Part shown: piece after piece, positions 3,072-30,374 of the stretch
Layout: every line of letters starts with the position of its first letter
Numbering within the stretch: the first letter of the stretch is position 1
Virus record (IMG/VR): IMGVR_UViG_3300032236_001159
Span: 1-64,000 of that record
Length of the DNA: 64,000 bases
Origin: a virus
Reading direction: 5' to 3' (one strand)
The notes under the pieces: generated by a model
What the model was told of the DNA's origin: nothing
The model's database searches: none
The model's input: the letters and a program-made list of their open reading frames with translations, nothing else
Translations under genes and position numbers: made by a program

Positions 3072-4072
3072 GCTACTTTTTTCCAGTTGGTAAATTTAAG
3101 TTTTGCTTCTAATCCTTGATAGGTATTTAATTTTAGCATAGATTCCACGTCTTGTCCAGATAATACAATATCATTAATGTCTTTTTCCTTTAAATCTTTT
3201 GGCCAGATCACCACAGGAAATTTCATTTCAATACTTTTCTCCAATCGTGCAACCATCTCTTTATTTCTTTTTTCATTATCATAAACCATAACAAAATTGG
3301 TTTCAAAGTTTGTTATGAAAAACATTTTATCAATATCAGCACCAACCATCGCAATTGAATTTTCAATAAACATACTATCAAATGGACCTTCTACAATATA
3401 AACAGTTTTGTTCCAATCAATTCTGTCTAATCCATAAATTTTTGGTTGATTTTCATCAAGAATAATTGTGATGTATTTTACTTTTGGTTTCTTACTTAAA
3501 CTGCGACCTTGAAATCCAAATATTTCTCCATTGTTAATAAGTGGAATTATGATTCTAGGTTCATCGTATTTTGTAGATTCAAAAGTTTCTTTCTGCTCAT
3601 TCGTCCATTGTTTAAACTTTTCACAATAAAACAATTGACTCAAAAATTTTTGAGGAATTTTTCTGTTTTCTAAATAAATTCTTGCCGAATGTTCTTTATT
3701 TAGTTCTGCGATAGAAGGTAGATCAAATGCCTTTTTTGTGAATTTTGGTTTCTCAAAAGTGAATTTTGGTTCTGGTGTATTGGATCCCTTACCAGTAGAA
3801 CCATTCTTATATCTTTCCATAATATATTGATCATAAAGAGTAGAATCAATATCTTTTAGAAAATTAGTAAAAGATTTGGATACTCCACAATTATGGCATT
3901 TGTAATTATGATCGTTCTTATAACCGTAAATATATCCTCTCGTCTTATTCTTATTCTTTTGCGAATCCCCACAATATACACATCTAAAATTATACAGTCC
4001 AATTTTGACTTGTTTAAATTTTTCTAGTCTTGAAGAGACTAAACCAATGTATTTTTGATCAATAAAATTCAT
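3068..4072 (-). CDS. gp61: DNA primase (T4 gp61-like)
   Basis: Zn finger FRCVYCGDS...CHNCG, FQGR, TOPRIM motif VEGPFDS, YDNE, KDIND. Confidence 0.95.
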   Translation of the reverse strand: MNFIDQKYIGLVSSRLEKFKQVKIGLYNFRCVYCGDSQKNKNKTRGYIYGYKNDHNYKCHNCGVSKSFTNFLKDIDSTLYDQYIMERYKNGSTGKGSNTPEPKFTFEKPKFTKKAFDLPSIAELNKEHSARIYLENRKIPQKFLSQLFYCEKFKQWTNEQKETFESTKYDEPRIIIPLINNGEIFGFQGRSLSKKPKVKYITIILDENQPKIYGLDRIDWNKTVYIVEGPFDSMFIENSIAMVGADIDKMFFITNFETNFVMVYDNEKRNKEMVARLEKSIEMKFPVVIWPKDLKEKDINDIVLSGQDVESMLKLNTYQGLEAKLKFTNWKKVA

Positions 4073-24848: not shown

Positions 24849-25514
24849 TTATTTGAATTGAGAATCAGGTTCCATTGGAATCCAATAATTCAAATTATAC
24901 TTCTCATTTGTGAATTGGGAAATAAGTTTAGATGAAATCACAACATCATAATTTGTTGGAATAATTTTAAGATTTTCAACTTTAAAATTAAAAACAAATT
25001 CTTTATCAGTTTCTCCCACGGTAATTGAATACTCATTGGAAGTATCAGTTCTCTTATCTCTTACAACCAAACGAATTACACCAGCATCACCAATTACAGA
25101 TAGATCATTTAATTGATATACCGCAGATGCTTTTTTCAATTTATCTAAATGGGAATGATCAAGTTGAAAACAAACATCTTTGGAAGGAAGTTCAATTTCT
25201 TTTTCTGGCGCAGATACAATTACTTCTGGGTCAGCAAAGAAATATTTTACCTTACGTTTTCCTTCCCGAATCACAAGATAATTATCATTTGAGAAATCAA
25301 GTTCTGGATCTTGGTGAAGACTAAGACCATTTAGAAATTGATTCAAATCATAAATTGCAAAGTCTTTTGGGAATTCTTCTTCGACTTCTGCCTGAGCTAA
25401 AATAGTTTTTATTACAGACATAGTGCGAATTTTTGATCCACTTTTCACAAGAATAGATTGATTAATTGACGCAAAGTTTTTAAGAATTGAAATCGTATTT
25501 TCGGATAGTTTCAT
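24849..25514 (-). CDS. gp45: Sliding clamp (gp45)
   Basis: MKLSENTISILKNFASINQSI, FAIYDLNQFL, FKVENLKI. Confidence 0.95.
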   Translation of the reverse strand: MKLSENTISILKNFASINQSILVKSGSKIRTMSVIKTILAQAEVEEEFPKDFAIYDLNQFLNGLSLHQDPELDFSNDNYLVIREGKRKVKYFFADPEVIVSAPEKEIELPSKDVCFQLDHSHLDKLKKASAVYQLNDLSVIGDAGVIRLVVRDKRTDTSNEYSITVGETDKEFVFNFKVENLKIIPTNYDVVISSKLISQFTNEKYNLNYWIPMEPDSQFK

Positions 25515-25819
25515 TTAAATTCACCCAATCCATTATCAACACGGCTATAATGCTTATCGAAGTGAAGAAGTAGCATAGCATAGTGAATGACCTTAAGTAA
25601 ATCACGCTTGTTACGCCCGTTTTTCTGTCCATACCTAGACCCATATTTCAAGATGTTCACTTGACAGAAGTCTTGTGCAAGTCCTTTGGAAGCAGCCAAA
25701 TCGATGGTTTGAATATCTTCATATCCTTCTTCACTACCAACATAATGGCTGCCATATGTACTCAGAACATATTCGGTTATATCTTTTAGAATTTGTTCTT
25801 CATTGTACTTCCATTTCAT
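25511..25819 (-). CDS. DUF3310-like protein
   Basis: SHY...FCQVNILKYGSRYGQKNG...DLLKVIHY pattern. Confidence 0.7.
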   Translation of the reverse strand: MKWKYNEEQILKDITEYVLSTYGSHYVGSEEGYEDIQTIDLAASKGLAQDFCQVNILKYGSRYGQKNGRNKRDLLKVIHYAMLLLHFDKHYSRVDNGLGEFK

Positions 25820-25843
25820 AATCTATAATCAAACTACTTTAAA

Positions 25844-25872
25844 ATAGTAGCACAAAAAACAAGAAAAGTCAA
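25844..25872 (-). promoter_or_regulatory. Sigma70-like promoter upstream of the gp45 operon
   Basis: TTGACT-17 nt-TACTAT with extended TG. Confidence 0.6.
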
Positions 25873-27836
25873 GTTAGTATCTTAGAGAATCCTTTCACTT
25901 TTTCAAATGTGATGATTTTATCGAACTTATCAATCAATTCATCTGTCTTATGTGAAATCACAAACACATTAGTATCTTTAATAACATACTTAATAATTTT
26001 TGTGAAATAATCAGTTCCAGTATTATCCAAAGAACTATCAAAAACTTCATCTAAAATTAAAAGATTTGTAGAAACACTATTTTTCATTCTAGCAATTTCT
26101 CTCCAAGTAAAAAGAATTGCTAAGTTAATTCTCATCTTTTCACCTTCACTAAAACTTTCATAACTAAAATCTTCGTGAATAGGAGATTTAATATGCTCCT
26201 TGAATTCATCATCAAGAGTAAAGTTGATATAAAAATCCATCAATTGAAGGTACTTATTGATTTGTTGATTCATCAATGGAATATACTTTTGAATAATCTT
26301 AGATTTAACTCCACCATCCTTCATTAAAAGTTGAGCAAAGTCGAAATAATTTACACTTTCTTTATATTTTGATTTCTTTTTAAAATTATCAATTTGTTCT
26401 TTTTTTAATTTTTCTAATTTTTCGTGTTCGGTACTTCGATTTTTAAGTTGTTCTGTAATGGTTCGAATTTCATTTTCCAAATCCTTGATCTGTCTTCTAG
26501 TAGCATTAATTTTAATATTATTTTGGGAAATATTATTTGTAAGTTTTGAAATTTCTTTCGTGAGGATATTAAATTTACTTTCTCTTTCCTCTTCTTCTTT
26601 AATTGCTTTCTCTAATTCTTCATATCCAGTTTGCATCTCCTTCACTTTATCTTGAGAATCTTTGAGTTTTTTTATTCTAAATTCTTCATCAATGGACTGG
26701 GTACAAGTAGGACATATCGTATTTTCATTAAAGAATTTATGTTCTTCGGCAATTGATGATATTTTTTGACTAATTTTTCCTTTTAAATTTCCAAGTTTAC
26801 GAAGTTTTTCTGCATATCCTGTTATTTCATCTTGCTCTTGAATATATTTACTAAGTGGGTCTTCAAGGGAAGAGTTATATTCCATAAGATCATTGATTTC
26901 GACATCTAAATCGGAAATTTTCCGATTATTAATATCAATCTTTTCATTTCCACGATTTTCCAATTCTTCAATAAATTCAGTCTGCATTAAAATCTTTTCA
27001 TCAATTGATTTTTCGAGCAAAGTGAATTCTTTTATTTTTTCATTTGAATTTCTTATTTTTTCTTTTAAAATGGAATTCATTGTTGAAAATATTTTAATGT
27101 CCAATAAGTCTTCCACAACTTCACGACGATGTGCTGCCGAAAGTTGCATAAAAGGTACAAAGGACGCACTTCCAAGAATTACAATTTGAGTAAATGATTT
27201 ATAATTTAATTTGAGTATTGTATCTTCTAAGTATTTTTGCTGGTCGTTTGATGCTGCTACCTGATTTTGCAAAACACCATCGATCCAAATTTCAAAAATG
27301 TTTGGCTTAATTCCCCTTATGACTTTATATTCTTTATCGGAAATATTAAATTCAACTTCAACTAAACATTCTTTTTCATTGGTCGAATTGATCATTTGAT
27401 TTTTTACAATCTTTCTAAATGCTTTATTGAATAGAACAAAACATAAAGCATCTAACATTGTTGAGTTATGAGACAATATTCCATTAGTATAAAATCTATG
27501 ATTATTTGAATTTACTGTAAAATCATACATATTTTCATAGACATCATACAATTTCACACATTTGACCATTTCTGGCCCATCTTTGGTCATAATATAAGAT
27601 TCATCAGGTATGAGATTTTTTACAAAAATCTCATTATAATTCTCTGTGAATAATATATGATCATCAGCGCATTCCAACACCAAACCATTATAAGTTTCTA
27701 TTCTCCATTTTTGATATGGAATTGTTTTATGGATGTGCGTAACTTCTTCCCATCCGGTATCTGTTTCAATTTCCCAGTCGGTTAGATTTATACTATTGAT
27801 AAATTTTCTATTTACTGTTTCAGAAAGTTCAAACAT
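25869..27836 (-). CDS. gp46: gp46 (Rad50/SbcC-like) C-terminal precursor: 124-aa split-intein C fragment plus 531-aa C-extein
   Basis: ...YDFTV...FYTNGILSHN|STMLDALCF; CPTC zinc hook, FSEGEKMR signature, LLILDEVFD Walker B, ISH. Confidence 0.93.
   Translation of the reverse strand: MFELSETVNRKFINSINLTDWEIETDTGWEEVTHIHKTIPYQKWRIETYNGLVLECADDHILFTENYNEIFVKNLIPDESYIMTKDGPEMVKCVKLYDVYENMYDFTVNSNNHRFYTNGILSHNSTMLDALCFVLFNKAFRKIVKNQMINSTNEKECLVEVEFNISDKEYKVIRGIKPNIFEIWIDGVLQNQVAASNDQQKYLEDTILKLNYKSFTQIVILGSASFVPFMQLSAAHRREVVEDLLDIKIFSTMNSILKEKIRNSNEKIKEFTLLEKSIDEKILMQTEFIEELENRGNEKIDINNRKISDLDVEINDLMEYNSSLEDPLSKYIQEQDEITGYAEKLRKLGNLKGKISQKISSIAEEHKFFNENTICPTCTQSIDEEFRIKKLKDSQDKVKEMQTGYEELEKAIKEEEERESKFNILTKEISKLTNNISQNNIKINATRRQIKDLENEIRTITEQLKNRSTEHEKLEKLKKEQIDNFKKKSKYKESVNYFDFAQLLMKDGGVKSKIIQKYIPLMNQQINKYLQLMDFYINFTLDDEFKEHIKSPIHEDFSYESFSEGEKMRINLAILFTWREIARMKNSVSTNLLILDEVFDSSLDNTGTDYFTKIIKYVIKDTNVFVISHKTDELIDKFDKIITFEKVKGFSKILT
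27465..27836 (-). mobile_element. Split intein C fragment (IntC, 124 aa)
   Basis: Block B LECADDH, block F MYDFTV, block G FYTNGILSHN followed by Ser+1. Confidence 0.92.
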
Positions 27837-28876
27837 TCTTCAATTACCTTTTCTTTTTTAAATTTGTAATCATTTTCATTTACTCTATGAATTAAATATC
27901 CATACTTTTTATAAATTTCATCTCTCTCTTCATCTCTATTTTTATTGCCCCTACCAACCAATCCGTGCCAATAAGTACCATCAAATTCAATTATTTTTTT
28001 GCTATTTGTATCTATAAAATCTGGAAGTAACAATTTATCTAATTTTAATCTCAACTCATTATTTTTTCCAGATTTATCTGGTTTTTTATTTTCGTCAAGT
28101 TCTGCAAAAAATATGCTATCCAAAGAGTTCAAATGTGAAGAAATTTCCCAAAATAACAATTGAGATATTTTTGAAAAATTTGATTTTCTATAAGATTTGT
28201 GCCACTTTTCTTGTCTATCTAGCCATTTCTTTTTTCCATCTTTTTCACCATATTTTTCAATACATTTTTTAAGAGTGAAAGTAGATTGTTCTTGTGATAT
28301 TTTTTCTCTTGCTTCCACTTCATTAAATCCTCTAACAATCCAATATTCAATACATCTTTTTGATGATACTCTTTGGATTTTATTGTTATCTTTTGCTTTT
28401 TTAGATCCTTTGTTGTTGTTTTTTTCTTTCTGTTTTTTTGCCAATTCTATGGATTCTTCTTCATTATAACCTGCTTTTAACCAATATTCTTTTCTAATTG
28501 GTCTTCTTGAATCTCTTTCATAATTTGCCTCACTTTCTGTATAATTTTTACCAGTATTTGGATTTATTTTAGAAGTCCAAAATTCTTTTGAATATGGACT
28601 TACATTTCCTTTCATAGAATTTTTCTTTGATTTAAAATGTGCCTCACCCTCTCCCCATCCACGAGAAATCCAATATTGTTTTGTGTGCTTTCCCATCTCT
28701 GGAAGTGAAAGAAGTTTAGACACATAAGATTTGCATTTTACGACATTTGATGCTTCTGGAACACTTTGAAGTTCTATAAAAAGTTTTTGTCTTAAATCAG
28801 GATGAAGATTTTGTATCTTTTCATCAAGACATTCTTCAATTTTTTCTTGAATGGTTCTACTTCTTTTGTGCGTCAT
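27812..28876 (-). mobile_element. Free-standing Vsr/EDxHD-like homing endonuclease between the intein halves
   Basis: C-terminal PDF...IIEFDGTYWHG...RDEERD...GYLIHRVNE; N-terminal YWxxxGxxExE repeats; AGGGGA RBS. Confidence 0.82.
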
Positions 28877-29075
28877 AAAAGTCCCCTACTGTGGTTTCTA
28901 AAATTTCTCCGGTAATTTTATTTCTTACCTTTATTTTAGTATTTATACAAAAACACTTACCAGAACCATTAGTTCCAACAATCAATGTCGTAGGAACTTC
29001 GGTAAAATTAATTTCTGTTGGTGTATTTCCAGAAGACAAAAAATTTTTAAATTTTATTCGCTTGAATAGTATCAT
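28857..29075 (-). CDS. gp46: gp46 N-terminal precursor: 40-aa N-extein plus 32-aa split-intein N fragment
   Basis: MILFKRIKFKNFLSSGN...LIVGTNGSGK|CFCINTKI...; the Walker A motif is broken just before its Ser. Confidence 0.92.
   Translation of the reverse strand: MILFKRIKFKNFLSSGNTPTEINFTEVPTTLIVGTNGSGKCFCINTKIKVRNKITGEILETTVGDFYDAQKK
28860..28955 (-). mobile_element. Split intein N fragment (IntN, 32 aa)
   Basis: Block A CFCINTKIKV starts with Cys1 directly after GK. Confidence 0.88.
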
Positions 29076-29331
29076 ATTCTCTTGGTGGTATTACAAAATC
29101 ATTTGAATTAATTATAACATAATTGTACCCATACATCTCACATGTTTTTATTACTAGATGATCATCAACTTCAACTACATCCATTTCTGGATAATCTTCC
29201 GCTTCTAATAGTCCAGAATAACGTTCAGCATCATCAATATCTTCGAAAAGATACAAAGCTCTTTCACCATCTTCGTCAATTACGGAATATGCTCCCTCAT
29301 CTTCTTTTCCTTTAATCGTAAGTATATACAT
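29047..29331 (-). CDS. Conserved hypothetical protein between gp47 and gp46
   Basis: EGAYSV...LFEDIDDAERY...DFVIPP; syntenic position. Confidence 0.8.
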   Translation of the reverse strand: MYILTIKGKEDEGAYSVIDEDGERALYLFEDIDDAERYSGLLEAEDYPEMDVVEVDDHLVIKTCEMYGYNYVIINSNDFVIPPREYDTIQANKI

Positions 29332-30374
29332 CAGGTTGCTTCCAATGCTTCTTTATATACATCTCGAAGTAGTTTTTTGATTATAGTTTTATCCAAACCA
29401 AATTCTGCCTCTTCTACATATTTATCTAAAATGGATAAAGTATCTTCGGCAGATATTTCTTCACAATCCACACTTTCATCATCAATATCAACAATTTCTA
29501 CAACTTTCAAATCCAAAGGTGAAGATTTTACAATTTCATCTAAAAATTTATCAAAATTTAATTGATTAGTTTTTTTTCTGACTATAATTTTTACAATTTT
29601 ATCTTTTAAAATTGAACAATCTATTTTTTTCGCATCACTATCTTCATAGTAGATTCTTTCAAATATATTGTATGGATTTTTAAAGTATTCTAATTCATAA
29701 GTATTGGTATCAAAAATATGAAATCCTCTAGTATCATCCACATCACTCCAAAACATTTGATAAGGATTTCCGAGGTAAAATACTTTTCCATTATCAGATT
29801 TAGTATGATAATGTCCGGTAAATACTCTATCAAATTTTTCAAATTTTTCAGTAGACAATCCATCAGTCATAATATGACCGGGATATGCAGAAAATCCATT
29901 CAACTCCAAATGACCAAAAACAACTTTTGCTTTGGTTTCTTGAATTAAATTAAAAGTTTCTTCTTCATTATCAGAACAAATCCAAGGAAGAACCAAAGAA
30001 TTCATTCCTCCAATACAAATTTCTGTTGGTCTTGAAATTGGTATTACATTATCATATTGTCTCAATAATCCATCAACTGCATTTACTTCATTAGAATTTT
30101 TATAATAAGAATCGTGATTTCCTACTATATTATAAACCGTAATTCCTAATTTTTCAAATCGGTCATAAACATTCTTCTTTGCCCATTCTAATGCCCAATA
30201 ATCAACACCTTTGCGATTATCAAAAGCATCTCCCAAATGAACTACTGTTTTGATTTTTCTTTTTTCTAATGTAGGAAAAAATACTTCATCATAAAATTTA
30301 GCAAAGTAGTCATGAAAAGATTTATTTGCTTTCTTGAATCCATAGTGAGTGTCTGTTACAAGTCCGAGTTTCAT
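29331..30374 (-). CDS. gp47: Recombination endonuclease subunit (gp47, Mre11/SbcD-like)
   Basis: TDTHYG, HLGDAFD, VGNHD, GHLE, GHYH metallophosphoesterase motifs. Confidence 0.95.
   Translation of the reverse strand: MKLGLVTDTHYGFKKANKSFHDYFAKFYDEVFFPTLEKRKIKTVVHLGDAFDNRKGVDYWALEWAKKNVYDRFEKLGITVYNIVGNHDSYYKNSNEVNAVDGLLRQYDNVIPISRPTEICIGGMNSLVLPWICSDNEEETFNLIQETKAKVVFGHLELNGFSAYPGHIMTDGLSTEKFEKFDRVFTGHYHTKSDNGKVFYLGNPYQMFWSDVDDTRGFHIFDTNTYELEYFKNPYNIFERIYYEDSDAKKIDCSILKDKIVKIIVRKKTNQLNFDKFLDEIVKSSPLDLKVVEIVDIDDESVDCEEISAEDTLSILDKYVEEAEFGLDKTIIKKLLRDVYKEALEAT

Follow-up and report, generated by a model that had tools for sequence, protein, structure and literature searches.

We have analysed a 64,000-nt stretch of viral DNA (hereafter the window), positions 1 to 64,000 of the IMG/VR virus record IMGVR_UViG_3300032236_001159, which is 85,710 bp long and estimated to be 45% complete. 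In the window the gene for gp46, a Rad50/SbcC-like ATPase, is fractured: its two parts stand in separate open reading frames (ORFs), each joined to one half of a candidate split intein, and a gene for an endonuclease lies between them. The three ORFs, all on the minus strand, overlap one another: 28857-29075 (72 aa), 27812-28876 (354 aa) and 25869-27836 (655 aa). The 72-aa ORF reads MILFK...LIVGTNGSGK, continues with CFCINTKIKVRNKITGEILETTVGDFYDAQKK and stops there. The 655-aa ORF opens with MFELSETVNRKF, runs to FYTNGILSHN at residue 124 and goes on with STMLDALCFVLFNK (STMLDALCF) to its end; the intein block motifs LECADDH, MYDFTV and FYTNGILSHN are all found in it. The middle ORF overlaps the first by 20 nt (28857-28876) and the last by 25 nt (27812-27836). 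The features of the cassette and its flanks are as follows.

28956..29075, minus strand: N-extein of gp46 (Rad50/SbcC-like), residues 1-40, with the Walker A residues GTNGSGK at its end (phrog_77; Rad50, SMC_N and AAA_23 matches)
28860..28955, minus strand: N-terminal intein half (IntN), 32 aa, first residue Cys1; stop codon at 28857-28859 (ORF list, conservation)
28940..28947, minus strand: putative promoter, TATAAATA, the T4-type late-promoter consensus, within the C-I-N-T codons of IntN
27812..28876, minus strand: free-standing homing endonuclease gene, 354 aa (PF04480 DUF559, fold match)
28169-28876, minus strand: conserved helical N-terminal region of the endonuclease, ~225-236 aa
~27815-28201, minus strand: Vsr/DUF559-like nuclease module, C-terminal part of the endonuclease
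27465..27836, minus strand: C-terminal intein half (IntC), 124 aa, with block B CADDH, block F MYDFTV + NNHRFY and block G GILSHN
25869..27464, minus strand: gp46 C-extein, residues 41-571 and stop codon, starting with the Walker A Ser (+1, codon TCA)

Aligned to the SbcC-like profile phrog_77, the 72-aa ORF covers positions 295-333 with its residues 1-40, and the 655-aa ORF covers positions 334-952 with its residues 125-653; since positions 333 and 334 adjoin, the two gp46 parts abut to the residue. A scan of IMG/VR in which residues 1-200 of the 655-aa ORF served as query returned 80 loci. Of these, seven (L004-L009 and L014) have IntC; in the remaining 73, gp46 is uninterrupted and reads NGSGKSTMLDAL (GSGK-STMLDAL). 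Intein-free gp46 is 570-572 aa long in all eight loci measured, and the exteins of the window add up to 40 + 531 = 571 aa. In the nearest empty alleles (L010-L013) the 40 residues of the N-extein are almost identical and STMLDAL follows directly. The splice junction is thus fixed by the intein-free alleles, both by their reading and by their length. A preliminary description of the locus, made from the sequence alone, had given the same anatomy (three ORFs, overlaps of 20 and 25 nt, intein motifs) and had proposed that splicing restores GSGK-ST in a 571-aa protein; every item it had observed was borne out by the ORF list and the phrog_77 match, and the junction and product length agree with the intein-free alleles.

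The products gp46 and gp47 form the Rad50/Mre11 nuclease of T4-type phages, which is needed for recombination-dependent replication. The motif set of gp46/Rad50/SbcC is present in the window: Walker A, Q-loop, zinc hook CxxC, signature, Walker B and H-loop. Among 58 sequences the C-extein residues Q200, C375 and C378 of the zinc hook, S563 and G565, D596 and E597, and H629 are invariant, and a profile search of the C-extein against solved structures found Rad50 (3aux, E 1.8e-27) and SbcC (6s6v, E 1.1e-25). Walker A becomes whole only once GSGK is joined to ST. Function of gp46 would thus require removal of the intein, because the unspliced pair, cut between the Lys and the Ser of GSGKS, cannot form a P-loop.

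The sequence between the exteins has the marks of an intein. Taken as a single sequence, IntC matches the solved split intein gp41-1 (6qaz) with E 5e-6, residues 10-124 against chain positions 17-128, and a profile of 58 IntC-gp46 proteins matches VidaL (3.4e-9), gp41-1 (8.4e-7), CatC (0.0025) and NrdJ-1 (0.0066). IntC also passes the NCBIfam model intein_Cterm TIGR01443 (19.3 bits, cut-off 15.6). A profile of the N-fragment, searched against solved structures, found Rad50/SMC P-loops only and no IntN chain. With 32 and 124 aa the two halves lie within the sizes given for atypically split inteins (IntN ~15-37 aa, IntC >100 aa). In 17 N-fragments of 72-81 aa, residues C41 (Cys1), I44, N45, T46, R51, N52, G56, E57 and I58 are invariant; in 58/58 IntC sequences the same holds for C56, A57, D58, H60, D105, S122, H123 and N124. 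The IntC N-terminus M-x-x-L-S-x-x-[VIL]-[ND]-[RK]-K-[FY] is kept in 6/6 loci. IntC relatives number 934, and we determined hosts, junctions and starts for the best 120; the +1 residue is Ser or Thr in every one of the 120.

Both intein halves are under purifying selection. The ratio of nonsynonymous to synonymous substitution rates (dN/dS) is 0.06-0.16 for IntC (computable in 11 of 15 pairs) and 0.06-0.23 for IntN (13 of 15); synonymous sites are saturated in most of these pairs, and the one unsaturated pair (L005/L007) gives 0.11 and 0.15.

IntN and IntC are also predicted to bind each other. In two-chain structure predictions made for residues 1-132 of the IntC chain and residues 31-72 of the N-fragment, with our own alignments, the interface score ipSAE was 0.72 (0.65, 0.72 and 0.74 in separate runs), while the best control reached 0.15; in the benchmark for this score the mark was reached by 58/80 solved complexes and by 2/110 mismatched pairs. 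The runs share at least 75% of contacts, the predicted local distance difference test (pLDDT) value of the partner is at least 71, and the predicted interface on the N-fragment comprises residues 37-54 and 63-71.

Such an interface speaks for association and not for chemistry, and it would serve equally well if the intein halves held the gp46 pieces together and the enzyme worked without splicing; the fragmented ribonucleotide reductase of phage Aeh1 is reported to assemble without an intein (PMC3045599). For gp46 we regard such a non-covalent assembly as highly unlikely. A 156-residue domain would stay between the Walker A Lys and Ser, which must adjoin for ATP-Mg binding, and the splicing residues (Cys1, the block B His, the block F Asp, His-Asn and the Ser/Thr at +1) are invariant in 17 IntN and 58 IntC sequences, whereas dimerisation alone would not need them.

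Could the split be an artefact? The window would then encode a large intein with an endonuclease domain inside it, in a single continuous ORF that two compensating frameshifts have broken, and it is true that IntN and IntC share a frame in the window, with the endonuclease in another. In Logan, run X1 holds the whole stretch. Its contigs span 25500-28277 and 28248-29500, so that both junctions are reproduced, with 0 differing letters, no indels and a word depth of 332-344. The relative frames of the three ORFs are 2/0/2 in the window and 2/0/1, 1/2/0 and 0/1/2 in other loci; all three ORFs lie in three different frames in L005, L007, L008 and L014. One long ORF with two compensating indels is excluded because the relative frames vary among loci. 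In addition, the starts of IntC and of the endonuclease are conserved as protein N-termini. An assembly or sequencing error is thus exceedingly improbable. The same gene order (gp47, DUF3110, gp46N-IntN of 72-81 aa, an ORF of ~350 aa, IntC-gp46C) is found in 7/7 IntC-bearing loci, and the protein collection contains 16 clusters of full-length gp46N-IntN pieces.

Removal at the RNA level, by a group I intron carrying the endonuclease gene, has next to no probability. A scan of 25600-29500 with Rfam, at E up to 1, gave two sub-threshold unrelated matches and no intron family, and the segment is flanked by complete intein halves under purifying selection, which an intron would not need.

Finally, gp46 might have been inactivated by the insertion, so that the locus is a disabled remnant and the phage uses host or other nucleases. 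Expression is without a direct sign, as no listed run with the stretch is on record as RNA. Still, the three ORFs are intact in 8/8 alleles, dN/dS values for the extein and for both intein halves are well under 1, the Rad50 motifs are invariant in 58 sequences, and 72 of the best 120 relatives are protein clusters of IntC joined to gp46, spread over two deeply diverged host clades. A remnant is, in our judgement, very improbable.

We therefore consider it very probable that the window contains a fractured gp46 with a short-IntN split intein in Walker A, that the two parts are joined by trans-splicing and that the endonuclease serves homing into empty alleles. The preliminary description had arrived at a naturally split short-IntN intein with an endonuclease gene between the halves, and the exact junction, the conserved residues, selection, the predicted binding of the halves, the lack of an intron match, the contigs of run X1 and the diverged alleles all argue for it. 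The course of events would be as follows. A mobile cassette made of IntN, a Vsr-like endonuclease gene and IntC would have entered between the Lys and Ser codons of Walker A (GSGK-ST). Two polypeptides would be made, the 72-aa gp46(1-40)-IntN and the 655-aa IntC-gp46(41-571); the 32-aa IntN and the 124-aa IntC would associate into one Hedgehog/intein (HINT) domain, and class-1 protein trans-splicing would proceed through a thioester at Cys1, attack by the +1 Ser and cyclisation of Asn124. With the intein out, a 571-aa ATPase with an intact P-loop would work with gp47. The endonuclease would be translated from its own start within the IntN frame, probably by way of a late promoter embedded in IntN, and most likely cuts the intein-free gp46 of co-infecting relatives; repair would then copy the whole cassette, with the adjoining +1 codon, into the cut alleles.

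The endonuclease consists of two parts. Its C-terminus matches PF04480 DUF559 (24.8 bits, cut-off 20.6). In an AlphaFold model (mean pLDDT 71), the nearest domain-level fold match is the catalytic domain of I-Bth0305I (3r3p), with probability 1.00 and a template modelling (TM) score, normalised by target length, of 0.69-0.71. Next come a DUF559-like protein and E. coli Vsr; the E-values of these matches are weak, over the range 0.16-0.54. Of the EDxHD residues, E297 and H304 are invariant in 6/6 sequences and D299 is Asn in L112, in a fold assignment whose E-values are weak. The N-terminal ~235 aa are common to all eight aligned alleles and contain repeated helices of the form Y-W-x-x-[RK]-G-[WYF]-x-x-x-E-[AS] at residues 68-80, 131-143 and 176-190; no match to Pfam, PHROG or NCBIfam, including NUMOD, was found for this region. 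None of 50,697 cultured phage records covers at least 80% of the endonuclease gene.

The C-terminal module differs among alleles. It is Vsr/DUF559-like in the window, L004, L006, L009 and L112, and T5orf172-like (GIY-YIG type) in L005 (2214-3269), L007, L008 (2950-4026) and L014, with E-values of 0.0016-0.016 that lie below the cut-off. Runs X3-X6 hold small shares of the stretch (0.09-0.10). The contigs of X3 and X4, which belong to another study, are related alleles and not the window phage; they track the window to 27814 and again from 28202, and the likeness is lost between these points, as for a swapped module. By these comparisons the nuclease module appears to be interchangeable.

Several signals for expression of the endonuclease lie within the IntN frame. 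AGGGGA stands 5 nt before its ATG, and its first residues, M-x-x-K-R-S-R-x-I-E-E-K-I, are conserved. The octamer TATAAATA sits 64 nt upstream of the ATG, where it may act as a promoter; it is found at the same position in 5/7 distinct alleles (window/L004, L005, L006, L008 and L009), and L007 and L014 have CATAAATA. Other copies in the window bring the set to 6017, 20928, 22462, 28940, 36610, 38035 and 42839, all on the minus (coding) strand. Synonymous divergence is mostly lower in IntN (28884-28955) than in IntC (27465-27809) or the extein (for instance 0.61 against 1.42 and 1.92 for L005/L008); this would fit an embedded promoter, a ribosome-binding site and an overlapping endonuclease start, in a comparison of just 24 codons.

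The cassette looks mobile, judging by comparison of alleles. Between the window and L004, a separate contig, there are 0 mismatches from 28970 to 27508, a span of 1463 nt that takes in IntN, the endonuclease gene and the greater part of IntC; identity in the flanks is 87.5-93.3% (8 differences in 120 nt of the N-extein, 32 in 255 nt of DUF3110 and 42 in the first 450 nt of the C-extein). In a C-extein tree (597 nt, 75 rows of which 7 are occupied and 68 empty, +1 codon excluded) we counted 5 occupancy changes, and branches with Shimodaira-Hasegawa-like approximate likelihood ratio test (SH-aLRT) support of at least 95 force at least 4; the window and L004 group with the empty alleles L010-L013 with support 100. 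For the +1 Ser, 73/73 empty alleles use AGT or AGC, and the 6/6 occupied loci and the window use TCA or TCT. In occupied alleles of other hosts the +1 codon is TCN or ACN in 15/15 cases and never AGY. Since AGY and TCN are not one synonymous step apart, the +1 codon travels with the cassette, and the pattern matches the co-conversion that homing predicts.

The window is not alone in having this intein. By best BLAST match of the extein, the hosts among the best 120 of the 934 relatives are gp46 like that of the window (45), a second gp46 clade (27), the terminase large subunit TerL (35), a 398-aa AAA+ protein (12) and a DnaB-like protein (1). All but two of the 120 open with IntC within the first 6 residues, the exceptions (P0068 and P0094) having N-terminal extensions, and in every one the junction reads ...SHN followed by S/T and the residues after the Walker A Lys. 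The preliminary description had held the short-IntN arrangement to be rare; with 72 IntC-gp46 halves in this set that does not stand, the arrangement occurs commonly in metagenomes of aquatic phages, and the window locus is less singular than was thought.

We also searched with a TerL member, which gave 36 loci, of which 14 were inspected. IntN of the same type follows GK in TerL (L084 423-3446, L109 2190-4571), in the second gp46 clade (L112 and L113), in a DnaB-like helicase (L115 1405-4586) and in a Clp-like AAA+ protein (L118 714-4610). The ORFs between the halves vary: Vsr-like in L084 and L109, a C2H2 zinc-finger ORF in L115. Among the inspected loci TerL inteins are contiguous in L096, L107 and L114, and TerL is empty in L086 and L094. 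One second-clade gp46 locus, L113 (3168-5489), has no endonuclease gene between the halves, with the IntN stop at 3497 and the IntC start at 3501.

In cultured phages, tblastn of IntC against the 50,697 records matched 344, the best being 42-48% identical and situated inside TerL of Ackermannviridae. Two of these TerL were translated; their mini-inteins are contiguous and occupy the same Walker A position (...QSGK-CVDHDT...GILSHN-TTVVAAF...); their N-terminal part aligns with IntN of the window, and a linker stands exactly where the window intein is cut. Block B of the contiguous TerL relatives reads A-D-D/E-H, as in the window. TerL is essential, so that these relatives must splice, which lends indirect support to activity of the family, including its A-D-D-H form of block B; the Ala variant is probably active in gp46 as well, because the contiguous relatives in this essential protein share it. 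In none of the 25 matches listed for the IntC-extein junction (96 records with at least 80% cover) was IntC joined to gp46 in a cultured phage; blastn against cultured phages matched the C-extein alone, in 1099 records.

IntC remains 52-81% identical to that of the window while the gp46 extein drops to 21-24%, and over 1653 pairs mean identity is 57.9% for IntC and 35.2% for the gp46 extein, a gap explained in part by the fast-evolving coiled coil. Hosts are interleaved in the IntC tree, with 14 changes against a minimum of 4, and the well-supported branches force one origin per host only. By an approximately unbiased (AU) test, a tree in which all gp46 inteins form one clade was not rejected (p 0.208). 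Repeated jumps into gp46 were thus not borne out, either by support in the IntC tree or by the AU test.

Two further gp46 N-pieces, P0156 and P0160, are 43 aa long and end in ...GTNGSGKSTY, broken 2-3 residues past the intein site; one of them is on a 220,832-bp contig. A different invader may have hit the same hot spot in these, either an intron or an endonuclease insertion that lacks an intein.

A broader reading, which we advance tentatively as a possibility, takes the window as one instance of a large uncharacterised family of short-IntN split inteins devoted to the GK-S/T junction of Walker A. The family would have moved among phage P-loop ATPases that are unrelated to one another, namely TerL, two deeply diverged clades of gp46/Rad50, a Clp-like AAA+ protein and a DnaB-like helicase. 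A free-standing endonuclease gene with an interchangeable module (Vsr-like or GIY-YIG-like) would break it at one and the same point every time, and the family would still be homing, carrying its own +1 codon (TCN/ACN) to each new site. If true, the family interrupts a recombination nuclease on which it also depends, as the breaks that serve its spread are processed by that nuclease.

A number of observations weigh against trans-splicing and homing as set out above. Splicing itself is something that we infer. His60 of block B is invariant in 58/58 sequences, yet the position usually held by Thr is an invariant Ala (CADDH, not TxxH), and the Pfam intein models gave no match on IntC. The score of the predicted complex may reflect memory of, or likeness to, solved split inteins. 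Run X1 is possibly the source sample, so that its contigs are not fully independent of the record. For the endonuclease, the fold match to 3r3p has a weak E-value (0.16-0.23), and phmmer against the PDB found no relevant solved relative. As for expression, the preliminary description had noted Shine-Dalgarno-like elements before both the endonuclease and IntC; the first is the AGGGGA given above, and the element before the IntC ATG is a weak AAGG 10 nt upstream. The octamer TATAAATA is not enriched, with 7 copies in the window against 9.97 expected on both strands, and conservation of the I-N-T codons could by itself account for that of the octamer. In the search for a hairpin that would occlude a ribosome-binding site, 28850-28960 and 27800-27900 were folded, and neither fold outdid its shuffled controls (z -0.06 and +0.98).

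Upstream of the fractured gene lie two genes in the same orientation:

29331..30374, minus strand: gp47 (Mre11/SbcD-like nuclease; Metallophos E 7.9e-13, phrog_100, SbcD-like, E 3.9e-108)
29047..29331, minus strand: DUF3110 gene between gp47 and gp46, with a 29-nt overlap with the gp46 start (PF11360 E 1.6e-15)

The region upstream of gp46 is a mosaic. The gene before gp47 is gp55 in the window, L005, L006 and L008; L004 (1-543) and L007 (1-285) have another ORF there, ending in ...WYYYEDLM and ...WYYLE, respectively. Between the window and L004, identity falls to 70-79% in the 5′ part of gp47. By blastn the gp46 DNA of the window is nearest to uncultured marine viruses and T4-like cyanophages (66-68% identity). 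GC content is 0.26-0.32 in the cassette and flanks alike, and base composition gives no hint of foreign origin. Scans for sigma-70 promoters (39 promoter-like sites, 33.2 expected) and for terminators (1 terminator-like site, on the plus strand, 0.9 expected) were not informative.

If gp46 can be built by trans-splicing alone, fractured genes would extend to a new essential host. It is an odd case, a homing element inside a gene of the repair machinery that it may use; a review names gp46/gp47 as an exonuclease that may take part in homing (PMC2988022). That the cassette is identical in diverged backgrounds and the TCN/AGY split perfect makes for a clean natural record of homing with co-conversion. 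Natural split inteins with a short IntN are scarce and in demand for protein engineering (PMC13014065 and others), and the family supplies many diverged pairs from nature (16 IntN clusters, >100 distinct IntC) with Cys1, Ser/Thr at +1 and a 32-aa IntN. The regulatory switch and the orthogonal ligation tool that the preliminary description had proposed for the gp46 intein go beyond the evidence and have no support in it.

Genes of this kind have been known since 2009, when Dassa 2009 (PMC2677866) described 26-27 metagenomic fractured-gene loci of eight enzyme types, with gp41, IMPDH, DnaE, NrdA, NrdJ, DNA ligase, terminase and one unknown as hosts. The preliminary description had placed the kind in a few genes, terminase among them: an atypically split terminase intein is indeed on record, and the kind itself was already described in that paper. 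The window resembles these loci, especially the 'Terminase' locus, in the order host-N with IntN, endonuclease gene, IntC with host-C, in the use of one strand and in phage origin. The 3′ end of the endonuclease gene overlaps the IntC start by 6-69 bp in those loci and by 25 nt in the window; a long IntC is found in both (122 aa in one terminase intein, 124 aa here); the endonucleases are reported as GIY-YIG or Vsr-like, the latter in half of the fractured genes; and TATAAATA upstream of the endonuclease, already reported there, is shared with the window. The gp41-7 locus of the same paper is comparable to L113 in lacking an endonuclease gene. Differences are seen as well. Between IntN and the endonuclease gene the published loci have a spacer of 27-51 nt, the window an overlap of 20 nt, and the hairpin occluding the ribosome-binding site, typical though not universal in that family, is not predicted here (z -0.06). 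Unlike the window, none of the eight host types is gp46/Rad50. Our literature search found no report of an intein in gp46, SbcC or Rad50, in keeping with the preliminary description, and the supplementary tables of Dassa 2009 and Novikova 2016 could list more hosts.

Short-IntN split inteins in print include AceL-TerL, GOS-TerL, the consensus Cat, VidaL and PolB16 (PMC13014065 and others). AceL-TerL, GOS-TerL and Cat have an IntN of 15-37 aa and an IntC of >100 aa, are Cys-dependent and come from phages or metagenomes (PMC13014065), which the 32/124-aa intein of the window resembles; their split is said to follow the first helix, the S2 site (PMC13014065). The match of the window IntC to solved CatC is weak (E 0.94 as a single sequence, 0.0025 by profile), and the host gene is other than TerL. 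VidaL (6vgv) is the closest solved intein by profile, over positions 21-125, and is atypically split and Cys-dependent like that of the window; it is split earlier, at the S1 site, with an IntN of 16 aa (PMC13014065) against 32 aa. The gp41-1 intein, the best single-sequence solved match, likewise has its origin in a fractured gene, that of a T4-like cyanophage relative, whereas it is canonically split (IntN 88-105 aa and IntC 33-54 aa for such inteins; PMC2677866) and its host is a DNA helicase. The TerL mini-inteins of Vibrio phage VAP7 and Salmonella phage 38 (Ackermannviridae) stand at the same Walker A point (SGK-C...SHN-TT) and have block B ADDH or ADEH like the window; they are in one piece with a linker and without an endonuclease gene, in a terminase host, whereas the window intein is split and its host is gp46. 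For the endonuclease, I-Bth0305I, prototype of the Vsr-like homing endonucleases later named EDxHD (PMC3239194), is the nearest match in nuclease fold, at weak E-values, and likewise has a DNA-binding region N-terminal to the nuclease; I-Bth0305I is intron-encoded, unlike the endonuclease of the window with its YW-x-x-RG-type N-terminal repeats, and in sister alleles of the latter a T5orf172-like module stands in for the nuclease. What appears to be new here is gp46 as a host gene and an intein group that, by sequence, is not close to the characterised ones; to the known picture the locus adds evidence of ongoing homing, a +1 codon that travels with the cassette, an apparently interchangeable nuclease module and what may be one intein family spread over several P-loop ATPases.

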